From a virus: DNA of 37,595 bases. Position 1 is the stretch's first letter. Every line of letters starts with the position of its first letter. Under the pieces are notes generated by a model that was not told the origin of the DNA, did no database searches, and saw only the letters and a list, made by a program, of their open reading frames with translations. The stretch lies in UHGV virus genome UHGV-0051534, one strand, 5' to 3'. The position numbers and the translations under genes are program-made. Shown piece after piece: positions 4,791 to 32,943 of this stretch.

Positions 4791-4805
4791 GTACCTCAAA
4801 GGTAA
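4791..4805. promoter_or_regulatory. operator-like inverted repeat GTACC-TCAAA-GGTAA
   Basis: Same 5-5-5 architecture as the immunity-region operators; lies between the terminator and the next gene. Confidence 0.4.
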
Positions 4806-4885
4806 TAAAAAACCAAATCTGGTTGATCTTTTTTTTGTGTCAGCACAAAATGACCGTAATCCCAATACTAATAACAGGGCTTACC

Positions 4886-5086
4886 ATGGAAATCATTACA
4901 CGTATTGATGCCGCAAAGCGCGGACTTAAACGCTACTACACCGGAAAAACATGTAAGCACGGACATGACAGTGAACGCTGGGTTTACAACGGACACTGTG
5001 TTGAGTGCACCATGGAATCAAACCGTCGTATCAGGGCAGAGATTAAGCAGATCATGATTAATTCCTCCCCACAACATTCAAGCTGA
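4886..5086 (+). CDS. small cysteine/histidine-rich (putative zinc-binding) protein
   Basis: 66 aa from ATG 4886; YTGKTCKHGHDSERWVYNGHCVEC has a C-x3-H ... C-x2-C spacing; ORF could start earlier at 4850 or 4823. Confidence 0.4.
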   Translation: MEIITRIDAAKRGLKRYYTGKTCKHGHDSERWVYNGHCVECTMESNRRIRAEIKQIMINSSPQHSS

Positions 5087-5101
5087 TAGCGGAGATTAAT
5101 C

Positions 5102-5917
5102 ATGAGCAGACATGCAACAGATTGGGCCTGGGAGACAGATCCAGGTAGCTCATCATTAAAGCTCATACTGCTCTCGATGGCTGACAGAGCCGATGAATAT
5201 AACCTCTGCTACCCCAGCATAGAACGCCTCGTTAAAGACACTTGCCTGAATAAAAAAACCGTGCAGGCCGGGCTTATATCGCTCATGAAAATGGGGCTTA
5301 TTTCAGATACCGGAGAGAGAAAGGGAGCGACAAAAAGAGTGCGGGTTTTCTCTCTTAATATAACCAAAAACGGGAACATTAAAGGCAACCGGGAGGGGGG
5401 CAATGAACCCGAAAACGGGAATATACCCGAAAACGGGAATATACCCAAAAACGGGATGTTGAATGATCCCAAAAACGGGATGTTGAATGATCCCAAAAAC
5501 GGGATCCAGAACCAGTCATATAACCAGTCATTTAACCAAGAGAGGGAGAGCAGGACAAAAAGCGGGGATTCTGTGCCTCATGACCCCGGAGCAAACAACG
5601 CCGTGATGAATAACTTTGTTCCTCCTGGTGGGCCAGGGCAATTAGGCAAATTTGTCATGCATGAACAATGGCAGCCATCAGATGACTTTCTTCGGAAAAG
5701 CTCATTGCAGGGGATCTACCTGGACAGTCTGCCAACGGCACAGGAACTTGCAGAGTTCAGAATTTACTGGATGGCTGAGGGTAAGGCATACCATCAGGCA
5801 CAGTGGGAGCAGAAGCTGGCAAGGCGGCTGCAGATTAGCAGACAGAAGCAATCAACATTACCTGATAACAACGTTCCGCACTGGAACAGCCCTGAAGCAT
5901 GGGAGGATTTCTTGTGA
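5102..5917 (+). CDS. replication initiator, lambda O-like
   Basis: 271 aa; GGAG RBS; N-terminal LKLILLSMADRADEYNLCYPSIERLVKDTCLNKKTVQAGLISLMKMGLIS resembles the O-protein DNA-binding domain; contains in-frame tandem repeats; directly precedes a lambda P homologue. Confidence 0.7.
   Translation: MSRHATDWAWETDPGSSSLKLILLSMADRADEYNLCYPSIERLVKDTCLNKKTVQAGLISLMKMGLISDTGERKGATKRVRVFSLNITKNGNIKGNREGGNEPENGNIPENGNIPKNGMLNDPKNGMLNDPKNGIQNQSYNQSFNQERESRTKSGDSVPHDPGANNAVMNNFVPPGGPGQLGKFVMHEQWQPSDDFLRKSSLQGIYLDSLPTAQELAEFRIYWMAEGKAYHQAQWEQKLARRLQISRQKQSTLPDNNVPHWNSPEAWEDFL
5363..5510 (+). repeat. iteron array inside the O-like gene, probable replication origin
   Basis: Direct repeats with core CCC(G/A)AAAACGGGA: 2 x 18 bp (5408-5425, 5426-5443), 2 x 24 bp (5444-5467, 5468-5491), degenerate copies at 5363-5380 and 5492-5510; encode PENGNI/PKNGMLND repeats; followed by a moderately AT-rich stretch. 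Confidence 0.65.
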
Positions 5918-6699
5918 ACAACGTTTTTACCGCGATACAAAACCGTGACGGAGAAGCCCTTTCTCGCATGTCAGGTTATGAGCATCAGTACGTCAACAAT
6001 GACAATGTGGTGAACATGTCAGCAGAGAGGCTTGTTGATGCCCTTTTTAAACAGCTGAAACAACTGTTTCCGGCGGCAGTGGTAACCAACCTGAAGACGC
6101 CAGAGCAGGAAGTTGCTGCAAAACAGCAGTGGATTGCTGCGTTTGCCGAAGGGGGGATCCGAACCCGTGAACAGGTTTCTGCTGGTATGCGCCACGCCCG
6201 CGCCAGTGAATCTCCGTTCTGGCCGTCTCCAGGGCAATTTATCAAGTGGTGCAAAGACAGCAAGATGGTTCTTGGCGTCACCATTGACGATGTGATGGCG
6301 GAGTTTCACCGGTACAGCAAGGAAAAAAGTTTATATCCTGGTGGTTCCGAAAGATTCCCGTGGCGACATCCGGTTATGTACTGGGTCGTATGTGATACCC
6401 GCCGTGCAATGTATCAGCGCCAGCTTAGCGAGATTGAGGTTGAGAAACACGCACGCAGGCTGCTCGATGATTGGGCGAAAAAGGTGGCTTCCGGACAGCA
6501 GATACCCGATCCGGTGATCAGCATACAGGCAAAGCCAGAGCCCATGAGTACGCCTCCGGACACAGGGAGAGACGTTTACCATCCACCAGGGCGAAGTTTC
6601 GGGTGCATGCCTAACGCCGCCACCCTTGGGGGAATAACACCGGCGCAGTGGCTGATGGAGGAATACAGGCGGGGAAAGGCGGCAGGATTTATCAAGTAA
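5899..6699 (+). CDS. P: replication protein P-like helicase loader
   Basis: EQVSAGMRHARASESPFWPSPGQFIKWCKD aligns with lambda P EQVNAGMRVARRQNRPFLPSPGQFVAWCRE (recalled from memory); start is ATG 5899 or GTG 5914 overlapping the O-like stop. Confidence 0.8.
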   Translation: MGGFLVNNVFTAIQNRDGEALSRMSGYEHQYVNNDNVVNMSAERLVDALFKQLKQLFPAAVVTNLKTPEQEVAAKQQWIAAFAEGGIRTREQVSAGMRHARASESPFWPSPGQFIKWCKDSKMVLGVTIDDVMAEFHRYSKEKSLYPGGSERFPWRHPVMYWVVCDTRRAMYQRQLSEIEVEKHARRLLDDWAKKVASGQQIPDPVISIQAKPEPMSTPPDTGRDVYHPPGRSFGCMPNAATLGGITPAQWLMEEYRRGKAAGFIK

Positions 6700-6704
6700 T
6701 ACCA

Positions 6705-6724
6705 GCGCGATAGCGCATTTTTTT
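6705..6724 (+). terminator. weak intrinsic terminator after P-like gene
   Basis: Short hairpin GCGC-GATA-GCGC followed by ATTTTTTT; stem is only 4 bp. Confidence 0.3.
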
Positions 6725-6736
6725 ACGCCTCGACAA

Positions 6737-6813
6737 TTACCTGTTAGGTAATAAAATATTCTAAAATCTATTGATTTCGTGTCTTATGTGGTTTTTAATT
6801 ACCTCAGAGGTAA
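6737..6813. promoter_or_regulatory. two operator-like inverted repeats upstream of the DUF1064-like gene
   Basis: TTACC-TGTTA-GGTAA (6737-6751) and TTACC-TCAGA-GGTAA (6799-6813); the second abuts the ATG at 6817. Confidence 0.45.
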
Positions 6814-6816
6814 ATC

Positions 6817-7161
6817 ATGAGAAAACAGATACAGGCTCTTGGTCGACTCAAAACAGGTCAGATGAACAAAACAGAATCTGCGTATTGCCAGCACCTTGAG
6901 CTGCGTAAACGTGCAGGAGAAATCGTCTGGTATCGATTTGAGGGTATCAAGCTGCGGTTAGCTGACAACACGTTCTATACGCCCGATTTTGCTGTGATGC
7001 TCGCCACCGGCGAGATGGAACTGCACGAAGTGAAAGGTTTCTGGACCGACGACGCCAGGGTGAAAACCAAAGTCGCCGCAGATCAGTATCCGTTCCGAAT
7101 CATCGGGGTAACGGTTAAGCCAAAGAAAGCAGGTGGTGGCTGGAACATCGAAGAGTTCTGA
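6817..7161 (+). CDS. DUF1064-like phage protein
   Basis: 114 aa; pattern FYTPDFAV...ELHEVKGFWTDDARVKTKVAADQYP recalled as DUF1064-like, a family common in lambdoid nin regions. Confidence 0.45.
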   Translation: MRKQIQALGRLKTGQMNKTESAYCQHLELRKRAGEIVWYRFEGIKLRLADNTFYTPDFAVMLATGEMELHEVKGFWTDDARVKTKVAADQYPFRIIGVTVKPKKAGGGWNIEEF

Positions 7162-7222
7162 ATCGACGATCTTTTTAGTTATCAATGTAATCAATAAGTT
7201 ATGTGGATAAACGAGGGTAAAG

Positions 7223-7840
7223 ATGGAAAGTAATATCAAAGGGTTAGTTGCCGCCGGGCATGAGATGGCTTCGGAACTGAAAGCTGAATGTGGTGCCGTT
7301 GATATGCGCAGTGTGGCAAAGCTGATCAGCGATTTGGCAACGCAACTGGAAGTGCAACTGGTGCGTGCTAATGCGCTTGCGGCGGAGAATGCGGGGCTTA
7401 AGGCCTTCAAAACCGCCGTTTATCAGCAGATGGGCGTCGGATGTGATGCTCCTGAATTCTCCATTACGGTAGGTTTGAGTAACTTACGTCGTTTTGCTGA
7501 CACACTCCACGCCATTGAGCGTGAGTTCTTTACCAAAGAGCTACCTGATGAAGAGCACGAAGGCGAAACATTCAATGAATGTCCACTTAGCTGGGGAATG
7601 AGCGTCGAACAGTACGTTTCCGAGTTTCGCAAATGCCTGGCTGAAGTACGTGCGCAGGGCGTGGATGCTGCTATAGAAGCTGCAAAAAATCTGGTGGCCC
7701 AAGAATATGAGTATAAGGATTTCAAAGCGGCGCAGAGTGATTGCTGTATGCACCCTGGTTCAGACCTGGTAGGGAAGGTTGAAATGACTGAGTGGTTAGT
7801 TGACTTTGCTGCCCAGCTTCGCAAAGGAGGCAACCAGTGA
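7223..7840 (+). CDS. hypothetical early accessory protein
   Basis: 205 aa with GAGGG RBS; no recognisable motif; stop overlaps next start. Confidence 0.5.
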   Translation: MESNIKGLVAAGHEMASELKAECGAVDMRSVAKLISDLATQLEVQLVRANALAAENAGLKAFKTAVYQQMGVGCDAPEFSITVGLSNLRRFADTLHAIEREFFTKELPDEEHEGETFNECPLSWGMSVEQYVSEFRKCLAEVRAQGVDAAIEAAKNLVAQEYEYKDFKAAQSDCCMHPGSDLVGKVEMTEWLVDFAAQLRKGGNQ

Positions 7841-8136
7841 CTGTATGTCTTATTGATAAACGTCGACGCGGGCAACAAATACCATCTGTTGAAATGCCGA
7901 ATCACACATGGTTTTGCGTACTTGATATCGATGGTATGGATACGTTGGTTGACACTCGTCATTACTGCGATACCGCAACAGCTACTCCGGCGAAAGCAAA
8001 GAAAATGGCTGCTCTGATAGAAAACTGGACTCCACCTGATGGTTGGTGCAATGGGAATGATCGAGATTGGCACGAAAAAATGAAGGGCTATATCTGCGAT
8101 TTTTTACGTAAATGCAACGGCTTCAGGGTGATGTGA
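7837..8136 (+). CDS. hypothetical early accessory protein
   Basis: 99 aa, Cys/Trp-rich; start overlaps previous stop. Confidence 0.45.
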   Translation: MTVCLIDKRRRGQQIPSVEMPNHTWFCVLDIDGMDTLVDTRHYCDTATATPAKAKKMAALIENWTPPDGWCNGNDRDWHEKMKGYICDFLRKCNGFRVM

Positions 8137-8137
8137 T

Positions 8138-8836
8138 ATGACCAAAATTAACTATCAGGCACTGCGTGAGGCGGCAGAACGTGCAATTCCGGCAATGGAA
8201 CGCCTGTTAATGTTGCCAGTTGATGATGATCTGATAAGCGAACAGGAACTTAAAGATTACGGTGTGGATATTGATGCGCTCAACGCCTTCAAATTTCTGG
8301 CCGGACCAGAAACCGTGCTGGCACTACTGGATGAACGGGAAAGAAACCAGCAATACATAAAACGCCGCGACCAGGAGAACGAGGATATTGCTCTTACGGT
8401 TGGGAAGCTGAGAGTTGAGCTTGAGGAGACAAAATCAAAACTCAACGAGCAGCGCGAGTATTACGAAGGTGTTCTCTCGGATGGAAGTAAGCGTATTGCT
8501 GAACTGGAGAAAAGCGAAGAGCAACTCATTAACGAGCGTGACCATGCTGAGTCTGCTTTAGCTGATATGTACTTTGCAGCAACCGGGGATAGGCCGGAGT
8601 GGAGTAACTGGTTCGGCTTTTCAGATGCCGTAGATGCCGTGGTTGACAGAATTGCTGATTTAGAAGCTAAACAGCCATCACCAGTAGTACCGGAAGGACT
8701 GGTTAAAGCCGTGCGCTTTTATGAACAGGTTAAGCGTGAGAATCCGCCAGTCGAAACCGGAGCATGGAAAGACGCGGTTGACTGGGTGCTCAAAGAGGCT
8801 TGCCAGGCTGTAAACATTGGCATCAAAGGAGACTGA
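8138..8836 (+). CDS. Ead/Ea22-like protein
   Basis: 232 aa; N-terminus MTKINYQALREAAERA and central coiled-coil (ELEETKSKLNEQREYYEG) resemble lambdoid Ea22-like proteins. Confidence 0.55.
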   Translation: MTKINYQALREAAERAIPAMERLLMLPVDDDLISEQELKDYGVDIDALNAFKFLAGPETVLALLDERERNQQYIKRRDQENEDIALTVGKLRVELEETKSKLNEQREYYEGVLSDGSKRIAELEKSEEQLINERDHAESALADMYFAATGDRPEWSNWFGFSDAVDAVVDRIADLEAKQPSPVVPEGLVKAVRFYEQVKRENPPVETGAWKDAVDWVLKEACQAVNIGIKGD

Positions 8837-8837
8837 T

Positions 8838-9047
8838 ATGGCTATTGCCGCAAGTTACACAATGCATCTCTATTGTGATTGTCGCCAGTGTACAAATGGT
8901 AAATATCAAACGCCAGACTTCGGTGAATATATCGGTACGTCATGGACTGGCTGTGCAAAAGAGGCGCGTAAGGATGGCTGGCGAATAAGCAAAGACAAAA
9001 CGCGTGCTTTTGCACCCGGGCATAAAGTTTTGAGGATTAATAAATGA
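8838..9047 (+). CDS. hypothetical small Cys-rich protein
   Basis: 69 aa from ATG 8838 with GGAG RBS; HLYCDCRQCTNGKYQ. Confidence 0.4.
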   Translation: MAIAASYTMHLYCDCRQCTNGKYQTPDFGEYIGTSWTGCAKEARKDGWRISKDKTRAFAPGHKVLRINK

Positions 9048-9631: not shown

Positions 9632-9981
9632 TGGACTATTCACAGTTAAGTGATTTTGAAATTAACAGAATGGTAGGAGACATAATTTTTAAAGGCCTTT
9701 GGGCGTGTAAACCGGAAACATCAGGGAATAACACCAACAAATGGTATTACGGAAATACTGATACAACTTTTGAGCCATTAAACCCTTTACCTGACTACTG
9801 CAATAATCCATCGGATGCATGGCCTATTATTGTTGATAATAAAATCAGTCTAACCTGCCACCAATCTCGCGGTGAGTGGTCAGCTGTTTTTAATGCCGAG
9901 AACATTTGCTTTCATGCGAATAATCCACTCCGAGCCGCCATGATTGTATTTCTCATGATGCAGGAAAATCAGAATGGCTAA
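9628..9981 (+). CDS. hypothetical protein
   Basis: 117 aa; ATGA overlap with upstream ORF; no recognised motif. Confidence 0.45.
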   Translation: MMDYSQLSDFEINRMVGDIIFKGLWACKPETSGNNTNKWYYGNTDTTFEPLNPLPDYCNNPSDAWPIIVDNKISLTCHQSRGEWSAVFNAENICFHANNPLRAAMIVFLMMQENQNG

Positions 9982-10312: not shown

Positions 10313-10320
10313 CATGTCAC
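10309..10320. repeat. perfect 12-bp palindrome GTGACATGTCAC, copy 1
   Basis: Read directly; overlaps the TGA stop of the upstream gene; identical copy at 30539-30550. Confidence 0.8.
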
Positions 10321-10352: not shown

Positions 10353-10378
10353 TTGAATACTGCCGCCAACTATGGCGG
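10353..10378 (+). terminator. rho-independent terminator immediately upstream of terminase genes
   Basis: Hairpin GCCGCCA-ACT-TGGCGGC followed by TTTATTTT. Confidence 0.55.
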
Positions 10379-10398
10379 CTTTATTTTGCATGGTACTA

Positions 10399-10431
10399 TT
10401 ACCACAACGGTAACAATTACCACGGTGGTTA
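10399..10431. promoter_or_regulatory. two operator-like inverted repeats before terS
   Basis: TTACC-ACAAC-GGTAA (10399-10413) and TTACC-ACGGT-GGTTA (10417-10431); the second abuts the terS ATG. Confidence 0.4.
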
Positions 10432-12496: not shown

Positions 12497-13345
12497 TTAC
12501 TTTTGTGTTTTTGATTTTCTTTGATGGGTGGAATTTAAACCACCATTTATATTTACTAGAGGATTATTCAATAATGTACTGATTTCTGGATTGTTAATTC
12601 CAGTAACGCCAAGTTTCTTTACGGACTCATTAAGGTCTTGTAATGATTTTAGACCTACAAACCCATTAGCAATTGTATTATTTGTTGCCAAAGGAATGTT
12701 TTTCTTATAGGACTCATATTCGTTTTTTAAATTTTTGTGGGCTTTTTCTAGATTTTCTAGTTTAGATGTTGTTTCATGAATAACCTTAGATAATTCTAAA
12801 ATACGAGCTTGTGCTGCGCGCAGTTCTGTCTCCCTCTCTTTCAATTCAGATGTGAGTTGTCCCATTCTGTCTTTTGAAAGAATTATTTCCTCTTTCATGT
12901 CTTGAATGTTTTTTTCAGCGCCTGTTTTTACTTTTTCGTAAGTAATGTCTTTTTTAGCCAGCAATCTCTGTAGCCGTGTTTCACGTTGTATTTTTCTTGC
13001 CTTCCGGTGATTTTCGATTGAGTCATTATTATCAAGAGGCTTTGCTTGCCATACGTTAATGATATTGTTTACCCATGGTAATAGGCAGCAGATAGTAATT
13101 ACAGATAAGCATGGATAAAACATAACAGTTTTCCATGTGCTGTTATCTGAGATGTATGAAATTTTATCTATTATATTTGATTTGCTAAAAAATAGATAAA
13201 GAAGTGATTTCCAGTTGAAGGCGCACCAGGACATAACAAAAGCACCTAGCACAGGGTTTTTAGCTCGATGCACGGCAGTATTGGCAGTAGATAAAAACAG
13301 CTCTTTGAACGATTCGAACATACTAATTACCTTAAAGTTTTTCAT
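12497..13345 (-). CDS. moron: membrane-anchored coiled-coil protein of unknown function (candidate exclusion/abortive-infection protein)
   Basis: About 33% GC against about 50% in flanks; opposite strand inside the late operon; two predicted TM helices (VLGAFVMSWCAFNWKSLLYLFF, VMFYPCLSVITICCLLPWVNNII) then a long coiled coil; start ATG 13345 or more likely ATG 13321 (AAGG RBS, 275 aa). Confidence 0.6.
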   Translation of the reverse strand: MKNFKVISMFESFKELFLSTANTAVHRAKNPVLGAFVMSWCAFNWKSLLYLFFSKSNIIDKISYISDNSTWKTVMFYPCLSVITICCLLPWVNNIINVWQAKPLDNNDSIENHRKARKIQRETRLQRLLAKKDITYEKVKTGAEKNIQDMKEEIILSKDRMGQLTSELKERETELRAAQARILELSKVIHETTSKLENLEKAHKNLKNEYESYKKNIPLATNNTIANGFVGLKSLQDLNESVKKLGVTGINNPEISTLLNNPLVNINGGLNSTHQRKSKTQK

Positions 13346-13346: not shown

Positions 13347-13375
13347 ATTATACCTTTAAGGTAATTTGTGGTCAT
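13347..13375 (-). promoter_or_regulatory. candidate promoter of the moron with overlapping operator-like site
   Basis: Minus-strand consensus -10 TATAAT (forward 13347-13352) with ATGACC 17 bp upstream; ATACC-TTTAA-GGTAA (13350-13364) overlaps it. Confidence 0.4.
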
Positions 13376-13404: not shown

Positions 13405-13482
13405 GAACTGGAAGCAATGAGTTATGCCTTCCGTGGCTGTACGGGTTTACAGCATGAAGTCATCGCAATGGCGTCCTGCTGT

Positions 13483-13567: not shown

Positions 13568-13644
13568 TGGCGCGGCATGCAGGATTCGAACCTGCGACCA
13601 ACCGCTTAGAAGGCGGTTGCTCTGTCCAACTGAGCTAATGCCAC
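13568..13644 (-). tRNA. tRNA-Arg (anticodon UCU)
   Basis: 77-nt cloverleaf folded by hand: acceptor GTGGCAT/ATGCCGC (one G-U pair), D-arm GCTC-AGTTGGACA-GAGC, anticodon arm ACCGC-CTTCTAA-GCGGT, T-arm GCAGG-TTCGAAT-CCTGC, discriminator G, encoded CCA. Confidence 0.85.
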
Positions 13645-13966: not shown

Positions 13967-13981
13967 TTACCTGAAAGGTAA
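13967..13981. promoter_or_regulatory. operator-like inverted repeat TTACC-TGAAA-GGTAA
   Basis: Exact 5-5-5 motif in the AT-rich gap between the tRNA leader and the portal operon. Confidence 0.4.
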
Positions 13982-14071
13982 TAATTAGTGCGTTAAATGT
14001 CAAGTATCTACGATAAATAAATCACATGTGGTTAAATTGGTAATAATTTAATTGCGTACGGAGTCATTGAT

Positions 14072-14278
14072 ATGTGCATGGGTAGCTCACCATCAGTGCC
14101 TGCAACACCAGAAGTTCAGGCAGCACCACAGGAGCAGGATGCCGCCGTTGTTGATGCCCGCGACGAAGAAACTCGTCGCCGTCGCGCTGCTGCTGGTCGT
14201 AGTTCTACGCTGCTTACCGGTTCTCAGGGCGACACATCAACCGCTAATACCAGCGGTAAAACGCTGCTTGGTCAGTAA
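14072..14278 (+). CDS. hypothetical small protein upstream of portal
   Basis: 68 aa with GGAG RBS; low-complexity Ala/Arg/Thr-rich sequence. Confidence 0.45.
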   Translation: MCMGSSPSVPATPEVQAAPQEQDAAVVDARDEETRRRRAAAGRSSTLLTGSQGDTSTANTSGKTLLGQ

Positions 14279-19778: not shown

Positions 19779-22249
19779 TGGCTATCAGTTGGATCCAGCC
19801 CAGCTTTGCCGGTGGTGAGATTGGACCGTCGTTGTACGGTCGTATCGACATGGCGAAGTACCAGGTGGCATTGCGCAAGTGCGATAACTTTATCGTGCGG
19901 CAGTATGGCGGCGTTGAGAATCGACCTGGTACGCGTTTTGTCGGTGCCGCCAAATACCCAAATCGGAAATGCCGCCTGATCCCGTTCCAGTTCTCGACGG
20001 TTCAGACCTATGCTCTGGAGTTCGGACACCAGTACATGCGCGTTATCAAAGATGGTGCGTTGGTGCTGAACAGCAGCAATGTTATTTATGAAATTGCCAC
20101 GCCATATACTGAAGCTGATCTGTTCCGAATTAAATTCACGCAAAGCGCCGACGTGCTTACGCTGGTTCACCCGGCATACCCGCCGAAAGAGTTGCGCCGA
20201 TATGCTCATGACAACTGGCAACTGGTTGATGTGGTAACGAAGAACGGGCCATTTGAAGATATCAATATTGACGAGTCAGTGACGGTTTATGCCAGCGCCA
20301 GCACCGGGACAATTACGTTAACGGCAAGCGCCTCTATTTTTGGCGCGGAGCAGGTAGGCAAATTGTTCTATCTGGAACAGCCTGCAGTGGATTCAGTGCC
20401 GGTATGGGAAACCAGTAAGAGTACGTCGATTGGCGATATTCGCCGTGCAGACAGTAACTACTATCGCGCCGTTACAGCAGGCAAAACAGGTACTTTGCGC
20501 CCTTCGCATACAGAAGGCACATCATGGGATGGCTGGGGCGGATCCGGTGATGATGATACTGGCATTGAGTGGGAATATCTGCACAGTGGTTTTGGCATTG
20601 CCCGTATCACTGCTGCAAATGGAACTACTGCAACTGCCGAGGTGATTTCCTATATCCCTTCGCAGGTAGTTGGCGAGGATAATGCCAGCTATAAATGGGC
20701 TAAATATGCCTGGAACAGTGTTAATGGTTATCCTGGCACTGTTGTTTATTATCAACAACGTCTTTACTTCGCCGCATCGACTGCGTTCCCTCAGACTATC
20801 TGGGCCAGCCGTACCGGGGATTATAAGGATTTTGGCAAAAGCAATCCTACGCAGGATGACGACAGAATTATCTACACCTATGCCGGGCGTCAGGTTAATG
20901 AGATCCGCCACCTGATTGATGTCGGTTCGCTGGTGGCACTGACTTCCGGAGGTGAGTACGTCATCACCGGCGACCAGAACAAAGTGTTAACCCCATCATC
21001 ATTTGCATTCAGCTCTCAGGGATCAAATGGCTCTAGCAATGTCCCACCAATTGCCGTGGCGAATATTGCTCTGTTCGTCCAGGAGAAAGGCAGTGTTGTC
21101 CGTGATCTGGCCTACTCATTCGATGTTGACGGCTATCAGGGGAACGACCTGACCATCCTTGCCAATCATCTTTTTCAGAAGCACAGCATTGTTGACTGGT
21201 GCTTCTCTATTGTCCCTTACTCCAGCGCCTTCTGCATTCGTGATGACGGTAAATTACTGGTGATGACCTATTTGCGTGATCAGCAGGTTTTTGCATGGGC
21301 ACCACAATCCAGTACCGGAAAATATGAAAGCACATGCAGTATCAGCGAAGGAAATGAAGATGCGGTGTATTTCGTCGTTAACCGAACCGTTAACGGGCAA
21401 ACAGTGAGATACATCGAGCGACTGTCCAGCCGTTTATTTACCAGCGATGAAGATGCTTTCTTTGTTGATTCTGGCCTTAGCTATGATGGAAGAAATACGT
21501 CTGACAGAACGATGACCATCACTGGTGGTTCTGGCGAATGGGATTACCGCGCGGAATATACAATCAGTATTTCTGGTGGTGCGTACTTCACCAGTAGTGA
21601 TGTCGGTGCGCAACTACAGTTCCCTTATACCGGAACTGATCCTGATACTGGCGATGAAGTGTCAAAAGAATTACGTTGCGACATTATTTCTGTAACCAGC
21701 AACACCGCTGTAGTGGTTCGTGCTAACAGGAACGTCCCGCCATCCCTCAGGAATGTGGCCACCACGAACTGGCAGATGGCGCGCCGGGCATTTGGCGGCT
21801 TGTCTCATCTTGAAGGTCAGACCGTAAACATCCTCTCTGATGCGAACGTGGAACCACAGAAAGTAGTTTCCGGAGGTGCCGTCACGCTGGAATCACCGGG
21901 GGCTGTAGTGCACATCGGCCTGCCAATAACTGCTGAATTCGAAACACTGGATATCAACATTAACGGACAGGAAACGCTGCTGGACAAAAAACAGGTGATC
22001 CCATCCGTTACTCTGGTTGTGAATGCCAGCCGCGGCATCTGGGCGACTACGCCCGGCGGTAAATGGTACGAATATCCACAGCGTGAATTCGAGTTCTACG
22101 ATGATCCTGTTGATGACGCTACCGGAAAAGTAGAAGTGAAACTGGACAGTAACTGGGGCAAAAACGGACGTGTAAGAATCCGTCAGCTTGACCCGTTGCC
22201 GCTGTCTGTTCTTGCCGTTATTCCTCGTCTTACTGTTGGGGGATTCTGA
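19778..22249 (+). CDS. tail tubular protein B / nozzle (T7 gp12-like)
   Basis: 823 aa; size and position match gp12; N-terminus MAISWIQPSFAGGEIGPSLYGR follows the gp12-like pattern. Confidence 0.5.
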   Translation: MAISWIQPSFAGGEIGPSLYGRIDMAKYQVALRKCDNFIVRQYGGVENRPGTRFVGAAKYPNRKCRLIPFQFSTVQTYALEFGHQYMRVIKDGALVLNSSNVIYEIATPYTEADLFRIKFTQSADVLTLVHPAYPPKELRRYAHDNWQLVDVVTKNGPFEDINIDESVTVYASASTGTITLTASASIFGAEQVGKLFYLEQPAVDSVPVWETSKSTSIGDIRRADSNYYRAVTAGKTGTLRPSHTEGTSWDGWGGSGDDDTGIEWEYLHSGFGIARITAANGTTATAEVISYIPSQVVGEDNASYKWAKYAWNSVNGYPGTVVYYQQRLYFAASTAFPQTIWASRTGDYKDFGKSNPTQDDDRIIYTYAGRQVNEIRHLIDVGSLVALTSGGEYVITGDQNKVLTPSSFAFSSQGSNGSSNVPPIAVANIALFVQEKGSVVRDLAYSFDVDGYQGNDLTILANHLFQKHSIVDWCFSIVPYSSAFCIRDDGKLLVMTYLRDQQVFAWAPQSSTGKYESTCSISEGNEDAVYFVVNRTVNGQTVRYIERLSSRLFTSDEDAFFVDSGLSYDGRNTSDRTMTITGGSGEWDYRAEYTISISGGAYFTSSDVGAQLQFPYTGTDPDTGDEVSKELRCDIISVTSNTAVVVRANRNVPPSLRNVATTNWQMARRAFGGLSHLEGQTVNILSDANVEPQKVVSGGAVTLESPGAVVHIGLPITAEFETLDININGQETLLDKKQVIPSVTLVVNASRGIWATTPGGKWYEYPQREFEFYDDPVDDATGKVEVKLDSNWGKNGRVRIRQLDPLPLSVLAVIPRLTVGGF

Positions 22250-27570: not shown

Positions 27571-27575
27571 ATTAA

Positions 27576-30050
27576 ATGAGACAGGAATGTATACAAGCGG
27601 TCCAGCAGGCGGCGCAGCGCACGTTAACGGCGCGAGAAATACAGAACATTGAAGACCGCATTTATCGAAATATGCGCTCCATTGCTCGTGATGACCCGAT
27701 GTCGTGGCGACAACTTTCCGAATCAGAACGGTTGTATCGTGCAGCACAATTGGCATCTGAAGAATTACAGCGAGAAGCGGCATTAAAGAAACGTCGTGTG
27801 GCCCTCACTATAGCCGCACGTCAGAGATTGGATAAATTTATCAATAGCTATCAAGGGGCTGATGGGAAACTTGGCGCTCTTAACCGTACTATTGCTTTTA
27901 ATGCAGACGGTAAATCGAATTTCCTCTCTGTTGAATCCAGAACAAAAGCCACTCGTGATTATGCATTGAGTCAATTGCAGGAGGCATTTGAAGCAGTTGA
28001 TCCTCGCTTTTTTGGCCTGTTTGAAGATGAAGCGGGCGTGCGTGACCTGGTATATGAAATGCGAGGGCAAAATACTGGCAATGCTAAAGCAAGAAAAGGT
28101 GCTAAGGCGTGGAGAGAAGTGACAGATCTACTGCGCCGCCGGTTTAATGATGCTGGTGGGGACATTGGCTATCTCGAAAACTGGGGGATCCCTCAACATC
28201 ATTCTATGGAAAAGGTTGGGGCGGTATCAAAAGATAAATGGGTTAGCGATGTTATAGGTAAGCTGGATCGCAAATATTATACCCGAGCCGATGGACAACT
28301 GATGAACGATGCCGAGTTGTCTGCATTTCTTGGAGAGGCTTATAACACGATCGCTACTGGTGGGCTGAATAAGCTTACTGATACCGGAATGCGAATTTCC
28401 GGCGTACGTGCTAACCGTGGTAATGCATCACGACAGATACATTTCAAAGATGCAGATTCCTATCTGCAATATCAGCAACTTTATGGCGATCGCTCTCTAT
28501 GGGAAATCATGGTCGGTCACCTGGAAGGTATCAGTAAAGATATTGCGCTGGTGGAAACATATGGCCCAAACCCCGATCATGTTTTCCGCTCTCTTCTTGA
28601 TCAGGTTAAGGCAGAAACGGCAACAGCTAACCCGAGTAAAACCGGTAGCGTCGAGCGTCTGGCGAACAAAACAGAGAACTTGTACAACTTTATTTCCGGA
28701 AAAACACAGCCTGTAGCGAATCCGCACATCGCGCGATGGTCTGACAATATCCGCAACTGGCTGGTTGCCAGCAGACTCGGATCCGCGTTGCTGTCATCGT
28801 TCTCTGATCTTGGAACCATGTATCTGTCTGCGAAGGTTACCAACCTTCCAATGAACCAGCTATTTCGCAACCAGCTTGAAGCTATGGACCCAACGAACCG
28901 TACTGAGCTTGCGCGGGCGCGCCGCGCTGGCCTGGCGATGGAATCTCTACTTGGCAGCGTTAACCGCTGGGCGATGGATAATATGGGGCCGTCTGTGTCT
29001 CGTTGGGCGGCAACGGCGGTAATGCGTGCCAGTGGGCTTACAGCATGGTCAGATGCGCACAAGCGCGCCTATGGCGTAACCATGATGGGAAGCCTGGGAG
29101 AAGTAGTGTCACGGACACCAGACCTTCGTAGCCTCGATGACTCTGATTTTCGTATCCTGAAAAGTAAAGGGATTACTGACACAGACTGGAGCGTATGGAA
29201 GCTGGCGCAACAGGAGGACTGGGGGAACGGTAATAATACGATGCTGACACCGGAAAGCATTATGCGTATCCCTGATTCAGCAGTTAAACATCTTGGTGAG
29301 CCTGAACGCGTGAAATTTGAGGCAATGCGTAAACTGCTCGGTGCCGTAACTGAAGAAGTTGATATGGCTGTTATTACACCGGGAGCACGTGAGCAACTGA
29401 TAACCGGTTCTGGTATTCAGCGTGGAACATGGAAAGGTGAATTAACGAGAAGTGTTTTCCTGTTTAAATCGTTCCCTATCTCGGTTGTTATGCGTCACTG
29501 GTCACGCGCTATGGGTATGCCGTCTGCTGGTGGGCGTGCGGCATATATTGCGACGTTTATTGCCAGTACGACCATTCTTGGCGCTTTGTCGCAGCAACTT
29601 AACGACCTTGCGTCTGGTCGTAATCCTCGAGAGATGACAGGAGAAGATGCCGCAAAATTCTGGCTTGGTGCTCTACTGAAAGGTGGTGGTCTTGGCCTTT
29701 ACGGTGACTTTTTATTGTCAGATCACACTAGGTACGGAAGCGGCGCGCTGGCGTCGATGCTTGGCCCGGTAGCTGGTCTGGTTGATGACGTAGTGAAGAT
29801 TGCTCAGGGCATACCGTTAAATGCTGTGGAAGGGAAGAGTGAGCAGACTGGTGGTGATCTGGTGAAGCTGGGGAAAGGTTTGATGCCTGGTGCGAATCTC
29901 TGGTACTTGAAGGCGGCTCTCGATCACATGATCTTTAACCAGATGCAGGAGTATTTTTCACCAGGCTATTTGCGTAAAATGGAGCAACGTTCGAAGAAAG
30001 AGTTTAACCAGACATACTGGTGGCGACCTCAGGATGTCACTCCGCAATAA
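27576..30050 (+). CDS. large internal virion / ejection protein (gp16-like)
   Basis: 824 aa; last large gene of the ejection-protein block. Confidence 0.5.
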   Translation: MRQECIQAVQQAAQRTLTAREIQNIEDRIYRNMRSIARDDPMSWRQLSESERLYRAAQLASEELQREAALKKRRVALTIAARQRLDKFINSYQGADGKLGALNRTIAFNADGKSNFLSVESRTKATRDYALSQLQEAFEAVDPRFFGLFEDEAGVRDLVYEMRGQNTGNAKARKGAKAWREVTDLLRRRFNDAGGDIGYLENWGIPQHHSMEKVGAVSKDKWVSDVIGKLDRKYYTRADGQLMNDAELSAFLGEAYNTIATGGLNKLTDTGMRISGVRANRGNASRQIHFKDADSYLQYQQLYGDRSLWEIMVGHLEGISKDIALVETYGPNPDHVFRSLLDQVKAETATANPSKTGSVERLANKTENLYNFISGKTQPVANPHIARWSDNIRNWLVASRLGSALLSSFSDLGTMYLSAKVTNLPMNQLFRNQLEAMDPTNRTELARARRAGLAMESLLGSVNRWAMDNMGPSVSRWAATAVMRASGLTAWSDAHKRAYGVTMMGSLGEVVSRTPDLRSLDDSDFRILKSKGITDTDWSVWKLAQQEDWGNGNNTMLTPESIMRIPDSAVKHLGEPERVKFEAMRKLLGAVTEEVDMAVITPGAREQLITGSGIQRGTWKGELTRSVFLFKSFPISVVMRHWSRAMGMPSAGGRAAYIATFIASTTILGALSQQLNDLASGRNPREMTGEDAAKFWLGALLKGGGLGLYGDFLLSDHTRYGSGALASMLGPVAGLVDDVVKIAQGIPLNAVEGKSEQTGGDLVKLGKGLMPGANLWYLKAALDHMIFNQMQEYFSPGYLRKMEQRSKKEFNQTYWWRPQDVTPQ

Positions 30051-30059
30051 GGAAGTGTT

Positions 30060-30233
30060 GTGTTTTTAATTATTTTGAGTGTGATAATTTCTGGTGGATT
30101 GTTATTTATTGACCGCTACAAATATTTTCTTAACCCTCAGACTCAAGCTATTTGCTGGTTCATCTTTGTTGTGCAGGGAGTAGTTCTTGTTGCAAGCCTT
30201 ATTGAGGGGAGGCCTCTTATTTTTACTGGGTAA
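30060..30233 (+). CDS. small hydrophobic protein (58 aa, putative membrane protein)
   Basis: GTG 30060 with AGGAAG RBS 5 nt upstream; translates VFLIILSVIISGGLLFIDRYKYFLNPQTQAICWFIFVVQGVVLVASLIEGRPLIFTG (two hydrophobic segments); AT-rich; below track threshold. Confidence 0.3.
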   Translation: MFLIILSVIISGGLLFIDRYKYFLNPQTQAICWFIFVVQGVVLVASLIEGRPLIFTG

Positions 30234-30245
30234 ATAGGTGACTAC

Positions 30246-30542
30246 ATGCAAGCTATAGGATTCATTGTTTATATCGTCGTTGGTCTTTTTCAGTTGGCAG
30301 CAATTATGGCTGGGCTTGAATCATGGTGGGGATTGCACTGGATAATTGCAGCCCCCATTGCTTTCATCGTGAGCTATATTCCATTTGTTGGAGCGATTGT
30401 TGGTATGGTTGGCGCTGTGGATGTATGGCGGTGGGAGTGGTGGCAGGCTGGCCTTCTCTTCTTTGGTGGGATCATCTTTGCTATTGTCTGCGGTGGAATG
30501 TCATCATTTTTCGAATGGCTATCATTCAGAAAAAGAGCGTGA
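30246..30542 (+). CDS. small integral membrane protein (98 aa)
   Basis: AGGTGA RBS; three to four hydrophobic segments, Trp-rich; stop codon lies inside palindrome copy 2. Confidence 0.5.
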   Translation: MQAIGFIVYIVVGLFQLAAIMAGLESWWGLHWIIAAPIAFIVSYIPFVGAIVGMVGAVDVWRWEWWQAGLLFFGGIIFAIVCGGMSSFFEWLSFRKRA

Positions 30543-30550
30543 CATGTCAC
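30539..30550. repeat. perfect 12-bp palindrome GTGACATGTCAC, copy 2
   Basis: Identical to 10309-10320; overlaps an upstream TGA stop in the same register and is directly followed by a terminator. Confidence 0.8.
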
Positions 30551-30576
30551 AGGCCGCTTTCGCGGCCTTGTTTTTA
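30551..30576 (+). terminator. rho-independent terminator
   Basis: Hairpin AGGCCGC-TTTC-GCGGCCT followed by TGTTTTT. Confidence 0.6.
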
Positions 30577-30735
30577 ACGAATGCCACCGCCGCCCGGGCG
30601 GGAATCCGCAGAACGCCCACCGCAGCGGGAGCCGTCAGCAGCAGTATCGCTGTCGTGCTGACAGCGACCGGCAAAGGCCTGAGTTGAAGCTACCAGAGAC
30701 AACAAAACGAACAGTGCAGCAAATGCTTTTTTCAT
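30574..30735 (-). CDS. small secreted peptide (53 aa) with Sec-type signal peptide
   Basis: ATG 30735; MKKAFAALFVLLSLVASTQA-FAG has n-region, hydrophobic core and AxA-like cleavage site; mature part about 32 aa with two Cys; plausible promoter TTGACG -17- TATAGA upstream. Confidence 0.4.
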   Translation of the reverse strand: MKKAFAALFVLLSLVASTQAFAGRCQHDSDTAADGSRCGGRSADSRPGGGGIR

Positions 30736-30805
30736 TGTGAAATTTCCATCTATAAGCCACCTCAATGTGGCGTCAATGAGTGTAGCACTGACTTTTGTTT
30801 CGTCC

Positions 30806-30829
30806 ACAAAAAAGCCCGCGCTGCGGGCT
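30806..30829 (-). terminator. rho-independent terminator after moron 2
   Basis: Minus-strand hairpin AGCCCGC-AGC-GCGGGCT followed by TTTTTT. Confidence 0.6.
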
Positions 30830-31353
30830 TACCAAAACTTGTACCACGGGGATTTATCCTTCAATGGACAATCCTTCCATCGTGTGGCCAACCATTCATA
30901 TTCTTTAAAATATGTGTTTATGTTTTCTTTTTCTCTAATAGCTTGTATAAGAGGTAGCGCAATCTGATAGTTATTTACAACGGAGCTGTAAAATACTTCC
31001 TTAATCATGGTCTCATCATAAGTTTTCCGCTTCACGCTCACAGCCATGCGTTCGTAGAAACCTAGACAGTAAATTATTTCTCTCTTCTCTATCTTTTCTT
31101 CATCCGTAAGATCAGCCTGCCCATTGCTTGGATACATATAAGAGCGGAATGATTTGTTCGACTCGTGAATGCGGCGCATAGTAGATAGGCCTTTCTTATA
31201 ATCTACATCAAACCTGCTTTCACCAAGGAATACTGAAGTGTGTACTTTTCTCGCTGTATTTACATTATAAATAATAGTAGCGATAGCTATGAACAAGCCA
31301 AGCGAAACCGCGACTGCACTTACGATTTGAGCCACAGCCATGGCAAATTGCAT
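30829..31353 (-). CDS. moron 2: N-terminally membrane-anchored protein of unknown function
   Basis: 174 aa from ATG 31353 (GTG 31368 possible); N-terminal TM helix AMAVAQIVSAVAVSLGLFIAIATIIY then soluble domain; about 37% GC; opposite strand to structural genes. Confidence 0.5.
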   Translation of the reverse strand: MQFAMAVAQIVSAVAVSLGLFIAIATIIYNVNTARKVHTSVFLGESRFDVDYKKGLSTMRRIHESNKSFRSYMYPSNGQADLTDEEKIEKREIIYCLGFYERMAVSVKRKTYDETMIKEVFYSSVVNNYQIALPLIQAIREKENINTYFKEYEWLATRWKDCPLKDKSPWYKFW

Positions 31354-31385
31354 TTCTTCACTTAACACAAACTGTCTCCAGACAT

Positions 31386-31409
31386 GAAAACGGGGCCTGA
31401 TGGCCCCGT
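31386..31409 (-). terminator. candidate terminator/attenuator upstream of moron 2
   Basis: Minus-strand hairpin ACGGGGCC-ATCA-GGCCCCGT followed by TTTT. Confidence 0.4.
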
Positions 31410-31497
31410 CATTAAACTATCCGAATGTTAAACGCCTTCGTACTCGTCAAATTTTCTCATGTGGGCTCCTCCTGTATCGGTGCCTAATCGCTATGGA

Positions 31498-31512
31498 TCA
31501 CCCGTAAGGTAA
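31498..31512. promoter_or_regulatory. operator-like inverted repeat TCACC-CGTAA-GGTAA
   Basis: 5-5-5 motif between the antirepressor and moron 2. Confidence 0.35.
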
Positions 31513-31583
31513 TAGTACTCTATTCACCCCCCGGTCTGCAATCGTACAGGATTATTTAAAGGCACATCCCTGTGCCGCCGCCG

Positions 31584-32279
31584 TCAGAAGAACCCTGCCT
31601 TGTCGTTGATGTACTCCGCGTGCGTCTGGATATCACGCAGGCATTTGCTCACACCAACGATGTAACAGAACATGGTGGTCAGCTCCGCCGCCGCGCCCGA
31701 TACATCGTGCCCGTCTTCCTGCAACTGGTTTAGCAGATTCATCAGCAGTGAGTTCTCCGTCAGGCCGAGAACACCTGACGGCGAATGAATCAGACTGCGG
31801 TAGCCGGGCTTCAGTGGGGCGCTGTAGGTTTTGTTCTCTATCTTCATTGCTTGCATTACTGCTGACGCCGTGGCGTTGGCTACCTGGTCGGCAACCATCT
31901 TTATGCGTTCTTCCTGCGGGAGCGAGTTTTTAATGTAACTTCCGGTGCGGCGGATCTGAGGAAGAACCTCACCTGTAACCCATTTACGAAAGCGGTAGGG
32001 GATAGTGCCTGGTGTCACCGCATCGCGGCAGCGGAGGATCAGTGTGTAGAGGCCTGACTCGGAGATGATGATCGATTCTTGCTCACCGCCAGGGGTGTCG
32101 GTTGAAGCGACGCCCTTCTCATCATCATCAAGTTTTCGAACAGCATCTCGATGGTTTGCTATGCCTATAGCCCGACAAACATCTGAAGCGATAAACCATG
32201 GCTCACCATTAATGACGATTACTCGTATATCGGCTTGGGATTCGAAAGAAAAAATGGACGTGCTTTTTGTAGCTGTCAT
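31584..32279 (-). CDS. ant: antirepressor, Bro-N domain family
   Basis: 231 aa; N-terminal FSFESQADIRVIVINGEPWFIASDVCRAIGIANHRDAVRKL is a Bro-N/Ant-like motif; C-terminal domain is paralogous to the upstream small protein. Confidence 0.75.
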   Translation of the reverse strand: MTATKSTSIFSFESQADIRVIVINGEPWFIASDVCRAIGIANHRDAVRKLDDDEKGVASTDTPGGEQESIIISESGLYTLILRCRDAVTPGTIPYRFRKWVTGEVLPQIRRTGSYIKNSLPQEERIKMVADQVANATASAVMQAMKIENKTYSAPLKPGYRSLIHSPSGVLGLTENSLLMNLLNQLQEDGHDVSGAAAELTTMFCYIVGVSKCLRDIQTHAEYINDKAGFF

Positions 32280-32435
32280 AGTGGTTACCTTTTAGTCTGG
32301 TTAATCACCACTACCGACGCCAATCGGTTGGTGGTGAACTGTGCAGGGTTGGCGTAACCGGCTAAAAGGACCCGGCGCACCTTTCGGTGCCCCCACACAG
32401 CCCACCATAATACGAATGTGGCCGTGCTATACGCA

Positions 32436-32456
32436 TAAAAAAACCGCTTGCGCGGT
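32436..32456 (-). terminator. intrinsic terminator/attenuator in the antirepressor leader
   Basis: Minus-strand hairpin ACCGC-GCAA-GCGGT followed by TTTTTTT. Confidence 0.45.
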
Positions 32457-32548
32457 GAATGCGCCTTTTAGTAATCCGGGACGCCAATCCCGGCACTGGA
32501 TTTTGCCAGTGCCTGATTACTATGGCACAAGAGGAGTGCGATGTAAAT

Positions 32549-32563
32549 TTACCGCAAAGGTAA
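32549..32563. promoter_or_regulatory. operator-like inverted repeat TTACC-GCAAA-GGTAA
   Basis: Exact motif in the 316-bp leader upstream of the antirepressor. Confidence 0.4.
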
Positions 32564-32594
32564 ATATAAGCACTCCGCTTGGTAATTGCAAACC

Positions 32595-32852
32595 TTATCT
32601 GGTTTGCTTTCGTAATTGTTCGGCACAATAGTCGAGATGTGTTTGCAGATCCTGCATAGACATCTGTGAGCTGGTGACGTAGTTAATCAGTGCAGTCAGT
32701 TCGGCAAGTGGGCCATCGACATTAAATCCATCCTTATCGAGATCCCGGAGTAATTTCATCAAGTGCGATCCCTCCACCAGTGATCTGACGCCTCCCGGCG
32801 TGTGAATCCTTTCGGTAAATCCGTCTTCCAGTGGATAGTGATACTGCTGCAT
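32595..32852 (-). CDS. small protein paralogous to the antirepressor C-terminal domain; candidate SOS-induced antirepressor
   Basis: 85 aa from ATG 32852 with GGAG RBS; YPLEDGFTERIHTPGGVRSLVEGSHLMKLLRDLDKDGFNVDGPLAELT aligns by eye with Ant APLKPGYRSLIHSPSGVLGLTENSLLMNLLNQLQEDGHDVSGAAAELT; LexA box just upstream. Confidence 0.55.
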   Translation of the reverse strand: MQQYHYPLEDGFTERIHTPGGVRSLVEGSHLMKLLRDLDKDGFNVDGPLAELTALINYVTSSQMSMQDLQTHLDYCAEQLRKQTR

Positions 32853-32871
32853 CTTATCTTCTCCATGCAAT

Positions 32872-32891
32872 AACTGTATATTTATACAGTA
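32872..32891 (-). promoter_or_regulatory. LexA (SOS) box
   Basis: AACTGTATATTTATACAGTA matches the consensus TACTGTATATATATACAGTA (CTGT-N8-ACAG at 32874-32889); about 20 nt upstream of the small-protein ATG. Confidence 0.7.
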
Positions 32892-32928
32892 TCAAATAAT
32901 TTGTTTGCTATCCAGCACGTTTTGCAAA

Positions 32929-32943
32929 TTACCCGAAAGGTAA
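32929..32943. promoter_or_regulatory. operator-like inverted repeat TTACC-CGAAA-GGTAA
   Basis: Exact motif about 40 bp upstream of the LexA box and about 100 bp upstream of the tailspike start. Confidence 0.4.

Follow-up and report, generated by a model that had tools for sequence, protein, structure and literature searches.

UHGV-0051534 is a viral genome of 37,595 nucleotides (hereafter the window, meaning the whole of this stretch) that megablast places among the phiV10/epsilon15-like podophages of the genus Uetakevirus, as an Escherichia coli prophage. Over shared segments it is 96–98% identical to PAS61, phiv142-3, ZX5, TL-2011b and phiV10, and phages of this sort are common as prophages in E. 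coli. Its intergenic DNA carries repeated copies of a short palindrome, TTACC-N5-GGTAA, which we describe here as the predicted operator of the prophage's own repressor, Rep. A sequence-only reading of the window had drawn attention to ten dispersed copies between 4791 and 32943, each with at most one mismatch, and had proposed that one regulator acts through them on promoters across the genome.

A palindrome repeated in the intergenic DNA of the window

All ten dispersed copies are where that reading had put them: six are exact (6737, 6799, 10399, 13967, 32549 and 32929) and four have one mismatch (4791, 10417, 13350 and 31498). With the immunity-region copies at 3632, 3694, 4406 and 4454 they make 14 sites, to which a weak site with two mismatches can be added between the two in the right operator region (OR). 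The predicted operators, including those of the left operator region (OL) at the leftward promoter PL, are arranged as follows.

3632-3708, minus strand: OL/PL cassette, with O_prox at 3632-3646 and O_distal at 3694-3708, 62 bp centre to centre
4406-4468: OR, between rep and the cro-like gene, with sites at 4406-4420 (exact), 4423-4437 (two mismatches) and 4454-4468 (one mismatch)
4791-4805, plus strand: post-cro operator (GTACC..., one mismatch), just past the cro terminator
6737-6813, plus strand: post-replication cassette, with O_distal at 6737-6751 and O_prox at 6799-6813, 62 bp apart
10399-10431, plus strand: pre-terS operator pair, 18 bp apart, after a terminator (10362-10379) and TTGCAT
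13350-13364, minus strand: moron operator (TTACCTTAAAGGTAT on the minus strand), overlapping the spacer and −10 of a predicted promoter, ATGACC-17-TATAAT
13967-14047, plus strand: head-operon composite promoter, with an operator at 13967-13981, ATGTGGTT at 14026-14033 and then GGTAATAAT; the gp3-like gene starts at 14072
31498-31512, minus strand: operator with one mismatch between the Bro-N/Ant gene and a DUF4760 gene (30829-31368)
32549-32563, minus strand: isrK-C4-bro/ant operator, abutting the −35 of TTTACA-17-CATAGT
32929-32997, plus strand: tailspike composite promoter, with an operator at 32929-32943, ATGTGGTT at 32976-32983 and GGTAATAGAAT; the tailspike ATG is at 33048

The motif is far more frequent than the composition of the window predicts. 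A pattern search found 9 exact copies against 0.01 expected from dinucleotide-preserving shuffles (n = 100), and 14 against 0.71 when one mismatch was allowed; none of the 100 shuffles matched either observed count. Each operator is in its ideal form a perfect 15-bp palindrome, and a symmetrised frequency matrix places the information in the two half-sites only, A and T being slightly favoured in the flanks and in mid-spacer. The sequence-only reading had cautioned that resemblance to Shine–Dalgarno sequence could inflate the counts. The pentamers are indeed numerous in the window (TTACC 48, GGTAA 72), but among TTACC...GGTAA pairs at most 30 nt apart, nine have a spacing of 5 and any other spacing occurs at most once. 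Given this fixed spacing, Shine–Dalgarno resemblance is unable to account for the motif count, and the caution can be set aside.

The sites are also confined to non-coding DNA, as had been claimed. We judged placement on a deliberately greedy map of maximal open reading frames (ORFs), on which 92% of the window is 'coding' and 8% ORF-free. Ten of the 14 sites lie in ORF-free DNA even on this map; the other four fall in artefactual ORF extensions or in an ORF over RNA genes, so that every site is non-coding. The sites at 10399 and 10417 are inside a spurious 5′ TTG extension of the terS ORF. In the epsilon15 and TL-2011b records the terS start is annotated past both sites, and Pfam Terminase_2 matches the protein translated from 10431, where the ATG is almost certainly the true start. 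With the terS start of the phiV10 RefSeq record, as with the maximal ORF here, the gene would take in a stretch (L002, 41-119; 10353-10431 in the window) that holds the two operators and a strong intrinsic terminator. The site at 13350 is in a 5′ extension of the moron ORF; on sequence grounds the moron start is placed at the conserved ATGTTCGAA near 13320, downstream of the site, rather than at 13417 or 13345. Finally, the ORF that contains 32549 overlaps two Rfam RNAs, isrK and C4.

The same palindrome recurs in related phages. Sites with at most one mismatch number 15 in epsilon15 (0.5 expected), 14 in phiV10, 14 in TL-2011b and 18 in SPC32H. The epsilon15 RefSeq record (NC_004775) contains seven 'protein_bind: repressor; lysogeny' features, an annotation that is itself a prediction, and these correspond to sites in the window as follows.

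12-27, before terS: counterpart of 10399
2931-2947, before gp3 and the portal gene: counterpart of 13967
19895-19911, between gp19 (an Ant homologue) and the tailspike gene: counterpart of 32929
32479-32632, three OL sites: counterpart of 3632/3694
35906-35922, after the replication genes: counterpart of 6737

The sequence-only reading had therefore rediscovered a feature already on record for the genus, as a prediction, and the novelty it implied does not stand, the more so as multi-site repressors are an established kind. The motif is not annotated in the phiV10, TL-2011b, PAS61 or SPC32H records, and a full-text literature search, with the primary epsilon15 and SPC32H papers outside its reach, returned no paper that describes it.

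To keep the comparison of positions from being circular, we anchored loci by protein homology and then inspected the sequence upstream of each start codon. A site lies at −32 to −34 from terS in 13/13 anchored loci, with a second at −14/−15 in 12 of them. Ahead of gp3, 10 of 11 loci have a site, at −104 to −106 in eight and at −89/−90 in two, the exception being a decayed Arsenophonus remnant. The DUF1064 gene is preceded by sites at −80/−18 (or −36/−18) in 10/10 loci, and the tailspike gene by a site at −119/−121 in 5/5 genomes. The window thus carries the palindrome at the same syntenic dispersed places, at offsets identical to those in epsilon15, SPC32H, phiV10 and other loci. Ahead of the lysis cassette, epsilon15, SPC32H and phiV10 have a site at −111, which neither the window nor TL-2011b has; the region upstream of the lysis genes is replaced in the window.

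The remaining sites have narrower sets of counterparts. At the position of the moron site, EC.W1-9 has an exact copy and BUCT711 one with two mismatches; TL-2011b matches 31498 with an exact site in the same location; 32549 has counterparts in phiV10 and TL-2011b; and 4791 is identical in phiV10, with sites at an equivalent distance from OR in three further loci (L085, L087 and L088). Between orthologous sites the half-sites are kept and the spacers differ, as in the versions of 6737 (TGTTA, TAATG, TGATG and AAAAG).

The Rep repressor, its antirepressors and the motif

The genes of the repressor, the Cro-like protein and the antirepressors are as follows.

3766-4350, minus strand: Rep, a 194-aa SPC32H-type repressor (PDB 5D50, E = 4e-42 over residues 1-190)
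4505-4735, plus strand: Cro-like small repressor, 76 aa (phrog_35, transcriptional repressor)
4757-4776: strong terminator after the cro-like gene
31584-32512, minus strand: P1 immI-like module, with isrK at 32437-32512, C4 antisense RNA at 32327-32412 and a Bro-N antirepressor gene at 31584-32279 (Rfam and Bro-N matches)
32595-32852, minus strand: small Ant, 85 aa, 88% identical to SPC32H Ant; the 'SOS gene' of the sequence-only reading
32874-32889, minus strand: perfect LexA box (CTGTATATTTATACAG) ahead of small Ant

The palindromes flank rep, with OR separating it from the divergent cro-like gene and OL beyond its other end, which is the classical placement of operators. Pfam reports HTH_3 at residues 106-147 of Rep and a weak helix–turn–helix (HTH) at 21-61, and found no S24 peptidase domain in the protein. 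In SPC32H, Rep has an N-terminal HTH DNA-binding domain, a middle HTH-like dimerisation domain and a C-terminal domain for tetramerisation and Ant binding (PMC9986798). It is a tetramer that binds palindromic DNA, with DNA-binding pairs formed across dimers, and a tetrameric antirepressor dismantles it (PMC9638917, PMC9986798). The two pairs of DNA-binding domains are ~100 Å apart and octamers occur in the crystal packing, while its mechanism of gene repression 'has not been extensively characterized' (PMC9986798). By homology, the Rep of the window is predicted to be a repressor of this SPC32H/epsilon15 type, non-cleavable, tetrameric and inactivated by an antirepressor. As in SPC32H, the small Ant gene and its LexA box are upstream of the tailspike gene; according to Kim and Ryu, in 2013, ant expression in SPC32H is reportedly LexA-controlled.

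A second antirepressor is encoded nearby. The Bro-N protein has 231 aa, and its C-terminal ~80 residues (148-229) match phrog_450, the same PHROG as small Ant, which suggests that it is a second copy of the Rep-binding domain, controlled by Rep and by RNA. Upstream of its gene lie both C4, matched by Rfam at 77.7 bits against a gathering score of 45, and isrK, also at gathering level; neither is annotated as an RNA in the phiV10 or TL-2011b records. Within an epsilon15-type podophage, this is an RNA-controlled antirepressor module like immI of P1/P7 (and also like Gifsy-1 isrK).

We then asked how far the motif follows Rep, scanning one genome per species and collecting 24 loci with Rep relatives. 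At 13/13 loci with a full-length Rep homologue (41-74% identical), TTACC-N5-GGTAA was the top 5+5 palindrome and occurred in the same paired layouts. These loci span ~12 enterobacterial genera, including Klebsiella, Citrobacter, Rahnella, Erwinia, Kluyvera, Buttiauxella and Pseudescherichia, and residues N36, R40 and W41 of the putative recognition helix, in the N-terminal HTH, are invariant in the motif-carrying clade. More distant homologues show covariation of the N-terminal domain with the palindrome. In Bordetella and Cupriavidus (L100-L103), only the N-terminal ~70 residues are shared, the helix reads PSLVSRY and TTACC-N5-GGT still lies directly upstream of the genes. In Vogesella (L104/L106), the helix differs (PGQASHL) and there are two TATCAA-N-TTGATA palindromes, spaced at 48 bp as in OR here, with a third several kilobases off. 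A Pseudomonadales homologue goes with AAACC-N5-GGTTT. A Citrobacter locus (L098, Rep 35% identical) has TTACC half-sites at other spacings, without a clear pattern. An Arsenophonus locus (L097, Rep 36% identical) lacks the motif and was examined for a replacement palindrome; being a rearranged remnant, it gave no information.

The structural genes provide the converse comparison. BPP-1 has an epsilon15-type structural module (portal 45% identical), an unrelated UmuD-like S24 repressor and 0 sites. Together with the covariation, this argues that the motif goes with the N-terminal domain of Rep rather than with the virion genes. No close structural relative with a swapped repressor was found, every listed relative with a portal identity of at least ~60% being among the 37 Rep-carrying records, so that the distant BPP-1 is the sole usable control. 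In Betaproteobacteria the Rep N-terminal domain is fused to unrelated C-terminal regions, with the operators clustered upstream of the gene and at most one more within 10 kb. Dispersal of operators over the whole genome seems confined to the enterobacterial Uetakevirus clade.

Predicted promoter–operator cassettes

The predicted operators stand in a few recurrent arrangements relative to predicted promoters. In the first, two operators are 62 bp apart, as at 3632/3694 and 6737/6799; 24 pairs with 61-63 bp spacing occur across a diverse set of loci. The order is O_distal, an A/T tract (TTTTTTAT or TAAAATAT), a −35-bearing CTATTGAC or CTATTGAT, 17 nt, and a −10 (AATTAT or TTTAAT) that overlaps O_prox by a single base, its last T serving as the first T of the operator. 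With this geometry, O_prox would cover the start site and O_distal would sit near −62. At OL, a promoter scan places the leftward promoter TTGACA-17-AATTAT (PL) between the two operators. After the replication genes, the pair brackets CTATTGATT(−35)-17-TTTAAT, and the DUF1064 ATG follows 3 nt past O_prox, so that the right half and spacer of the operator (GAGAGGTAA) would double as the ribosome-binding site.

The second arrangement consists of pairs 17-20 bp apart. Before terS the order is terminator, TTGCAT, 7 nt, O1, 3 nt, O2 and ATG; the sites are at −32 and −14 from the ATG, and the second ends at the terS ATG (10431). This layout is conserved across the protein-anchored terS loci and covers the region from the −10 to the start codon. 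Close pairing of the same type, with a third site, forms part of OR, where a layout of 17 + 30/31 bp recurs in epsilon15 and other loci and where 4454-4468 is inside the spacer of a predicted rightward promoter.

In the third, a single operator is followed by the element ATRTGGTT at a distance of 33-45 nt. In the window the combination GGTAA-N30-48-ATRTGGTT has 3 occurrences where 0.05 are expected. They belong to the promoters of the head operon and the tailspike gene and to the one after the replication genes, and each is oriented toward the downstream genes; ATRTGGTT alone is not significantly enriched in the window (5 observed against 2.8 expected). The tailspike promoter is divergent from the ant promoter. 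In phiV10, SPC32H and Tyrion the GGTAA...ATRTGGTT pattern is also found ahead of the lysis genes.

6786-6793, 14026-14033 and 32976-32983: ATRTGGTT element
35664-35676: ATRTGGTT variant before the lysis genes

The pre-lysis variant belongs to an AACCAT-N2-ATGGTT palindrome. Five nucleotides past ATRTGGTT comes TTACC (that is, O_prox), GGTAAT or TGTATAAT. The late promoters look like derivatives of the 62-bp cassette that have lost O_prox and a good −35; they probably need an activator, for which ATRTGGTT may be a candidate site. A rule that GGTAA should lie near the −10 at the 62-bp O_prox position was dropped, the distance being 62 at the head promoter and 50 at the tailspike promoter. The small regulators encoded in the window were considered as late regulators. 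The gp49-like gene (phrog_536) is conserved and lies directly ahead of the pre-terS sites; for the gp49-like and Cro-like proteins, no Pfam, NCBIfam or PDB match identified a DNA-binding specificity.

The last class comprises operators in or beside core promoters. The site at 13350 lies over the predicted −35/−10 of the moron promoter, upstream of the moron gene (12497..~13320, phrog_4780). The site at 32549 abuts the promoter of isrK-C4-ant, which is predicted to start transcription at 32512, just where the Rfam match to isrK has its 5′ end, and the site also overlaps the start of a second predicted promoter, TTGCAA-17-TATATT. The site at 4791 is ~60 nt upstream of the likely start of TTGATC-17-CAAAAT, a promoter identified by eye upstream of the gp40-like and replication genes. 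The association with terS, the moron, the antirepressor and the SOS gene (small Ant, with its LexA box) that had been reported holds up. The proposal for replication holds in part: only 4791 precedes the replication operon, whereas 6737/6799 lie after the replication genes and would gate the operon of DUF1064 and nin-like genes.

Strong terminators follow rep and cro, precede terS and lie near the moron. A tRNA-Arg(TCT) gene (13568-13644, minus strand) is located between the terL/moron region and the head operon, and SPC32H has one in the equivalent position. Within the replication-initiator gene (5102-5917), six imperfect direct repeats with the core CCCAAAAACGGGA and 18-24 bp spacing (5356-5508) look like origin iterons, by analogy with lambda O. 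No integrase or attP region was found in the window, with 1-50 and 35500-37595 taken into account, and the operator upstream of int in phiV10, epsilon15 and TL-2011b (TTACCTTAAAGGTAT) is consequently absent here.

A predicted Rep operator regulon and its known relatives

We consider it likely that the TTACC-N5-GGTAA palindromes are operators of the prophage's own Rep, through which it gates transcription units throughout the genome. The motif is enriched, non-coding and positionally conserved, it covaries with the Rep N-terminal domain, and both Rep and Ant are homologous to those of SPC32H. On this proposal Rep itself would bind the sites and repress at each of the predicted promoters, and its tetramers might bridge paired sites. 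Each transcription unit would be closed by a terminator and have a Rep-gated promoter of its own, in place of a single early switch with antitermination. In a lysogen, Rep would silence all units. DNA damage would, through LexA cleavage, free the ant promoter, and the small Ant then made would strip Rep off the DNA, derepressing all units simultaneously, including the Bro-N-fused Ant. Given that the Bro-N-Ant gene is under a Rep operator and the isrK/C4 RNAs, it could serve as a feed-forward amplifier. The repressor of ZX5 is described as identical to phiV10's, and its overexpression in ZX5 cut holin and endolysin transcripts by >99.9% (PMC9782041), an indirect result that is consistent with the proposal. 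The suggestion that one regulator directly controls these promoters is thus upheld as far as dispersed promoter operators of one regulator go, and 'directly' is a prediction from sequence.

Several points weigh against this interpretation. The weakest point concerns the head and tailspike promoters, at which the operator is centred ~60-80 nt upstream of the likely start, so that one bound dimer pair would not occlude RNA polymerase. The late promoters do carry sites, as had been claimed, but simple occlusion is not evident there; a lone operator could possibly repress by being bridged to weak proximal half-sites, by hindering an activator or by long-range looping. The absence of a lysis operator from the window and TL-2011b means that not every unit requires one. 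It is also unusual for an immunity determinant that Reps only 42% identical share a half-site, and the Cro-like protein could bind the same palindrome.

In another reading, which we regard as rather doubtful, Rep would not work as separate local repressors. The Rep tetramer would clamp 62-bp micro-loops over the early promoters and bridge the single upstream operators (head, tailspike and lysis) to weak proximal half-sites or to each other, making the prophage one looped hub that Ant frees at once. Immunity specificity would then reside in the Rep–Ant and oligomerisation interfaces and not in operator recognition, a corollary that follows from the sharing of one half-site by Reps only 42% identical in many genera.

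Alternatively, and in our estimate this is unlikely, the sites could be architectural and not serve to occlude promoters, with Rep tetramers or octamers bridging distant single operators to one another or to OL/OR, or acting as roadblocks to elongation directly after terminators in the manner of stoperators. The spacing of the DNA-binding pairs in the tetramer (~100 Å) and the octamer packing in crystals (PMC9986798) would suit such a role, as would the single operators upstream of the late core promoters, the many sites directly after terminators and the fixed 62-bp pairing, which implies bridging. However, operators of the paired cassettes, the moron and isrK overlap or abut a predicted −35, −10 or start, where ordinary occlusion suffices. 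Moreover, the sites are palindromic and lie upstream of transcribed bodies rather than inside them, and the fixed distance of 33-45 nt to ATRTGGTT favours a local role.

It is very improbable that the sites serve another phage regulator, the 76-aa Cro-like or the gp49-like protein, for temporal control of the lytic cycle rather than for lysogenic silencing. Cro-type proteins usually share the operators of the prophage repressor, 4505-4735 matches phrog_35, and the conserved phrog_536 gene is directly before the pre-terS sites. In neither protein did Pfam or NCBIfam detect a DNA-binding domain, however, and distant loci with otherwise different genes show the motif changing together with the N-terminal domain of Rep; a lytic-phase repressor on late, head, tailspike and lysis promoters would, besides, be counter-productive. 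Still less credit can be given to the sites being linkers at module boundaries, kept for homologous exchange among mosaic phages and bound by protein only incidentally: the cassettes do lie at module junctions and are kept while the downstream genes differ (DUF1064 or RuvC; different morons), but invariance is limited to the pair of 5-bp half-sites and the distance between them, with spacers and flanks free, which is the signature of dimer binding, and homologous exchange would not be efficient over a mere 15 bp. As for an artefact of chance or composition (Shine–Dalgarno-like GGT/AGG, A/T-rich intergenic DNA) or a host transcription-factor site, three sites are at most 20 nt from a start codon with a right half and spacer resembling a ribosome-binding site, but the exact count, which no shuffle reached, the single spacing and the conservation of positions across genera leave chance effectively refuted and the whole explanation with almost no probability, and we know of no E. 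coli factor with this consensus.

The Rep proposal provides a complete, predicted map of operators and promoters for the phiV10/epsilon15 group. It predicts that derepression after SOS-induced synthesis of Ant is simultaneous rather than cascaded. Because one operator sequence is common to Uetakevirus prophages of different enterobacterial genera, cross-immunity or cross-induction is possible. The findings open no long-standing question. Engineered forms of phiV10 and SPC32H serve as reporter phages for E. coli O157 and Salmonella (PMC6630733), for which repressor-gated intergenic cassettes matter in the choice of insertion sites and in payload expression.

On the features described, the system is to be classed as a Uetakevirus Rep operator regulon, of a kind already known. 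Its closest counterpart is in epsilon15, which belongs to the same genus and has the same core and sites at the same places (pre-terS, pre-gp3, between ant/gp19 and the tailspike gene, OL and post-replication). The two differ in that the epsilon15 Rep is only 42% identical to that of the window, and in that epsilon15 adds a third site in OL and one at the lysis cassette but lacks the post-cro, moron and Bro-N/isrK/C4 sites; none of the three OR sites of epsilon15 is annotated in its record. SPC32H shares a homologous Rep of the same type (N-terminal HTH, no peptidase), an 88%-identical Ant with a LexA box upstream of the tailspike gene, and 18 copies of the motif, whereas the window also encodes another Ant, fused to Bro-N and controlled by isrK/C4. 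Experiments on SPC32H (by Kim and Ryu in 2013 and by Kim and colleagues in 2016) reportedly addressed the switch and not the dispersed sites.

With lambda, the window shares divergent repressor and cro genes, a tripartite OR and OL at the leftward early promoter, and by analogy cooperative binding to multiple sites is likely. The likeness ends there: Rep is not an autocleavable S24 repressor, and the operators are not confined to OL and OR. Ten further sites between 4791 and 32943 place operators at middle, late, accessory and antirepressor promoters, with a terminator and promoter for each unit in place of N/Q antitermination, and this is broader than the two-operator lambda model, as the sequence-only reading had held. 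Wider use of one repressor is familiar from other phages. The L5/L1 repressor gp71 acts at dozens of stoperators in short intergenic regions, which block elongation in an orientation-dependent way. The sites in the window are instead palindromic and upstream of or over predicted promoters, not asymmetric, orientation-dependent and within transcription units. Temperate mycobacteriophage repressors are described as binding multiple operator DNAs where lambdoid repressors bind a few, and the L5 sites as asymmetric (PMC1934351).

The window also has an immI-type order of elements, in which an operator-controlled predicted promoter (operator 32549-32563) leads into C4 RNA and an antirepressor gene. 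In P1, a plasmid myovirus, one C1 repressor acts at operators of many operons, the operator is an asymmetric 17-mer, and immI comprises c4-icd-ant; to our knowledge C1 is unrelated to Rep. The window differs from P1 in having a 15-bp palindrome and an SPC32H-type Rep, and in that induction would run through a LexA-controlled Ant. Seen this way, the window suggests that a lambda-like switch can coexist with the P1-like strategy of an operator on every operon.

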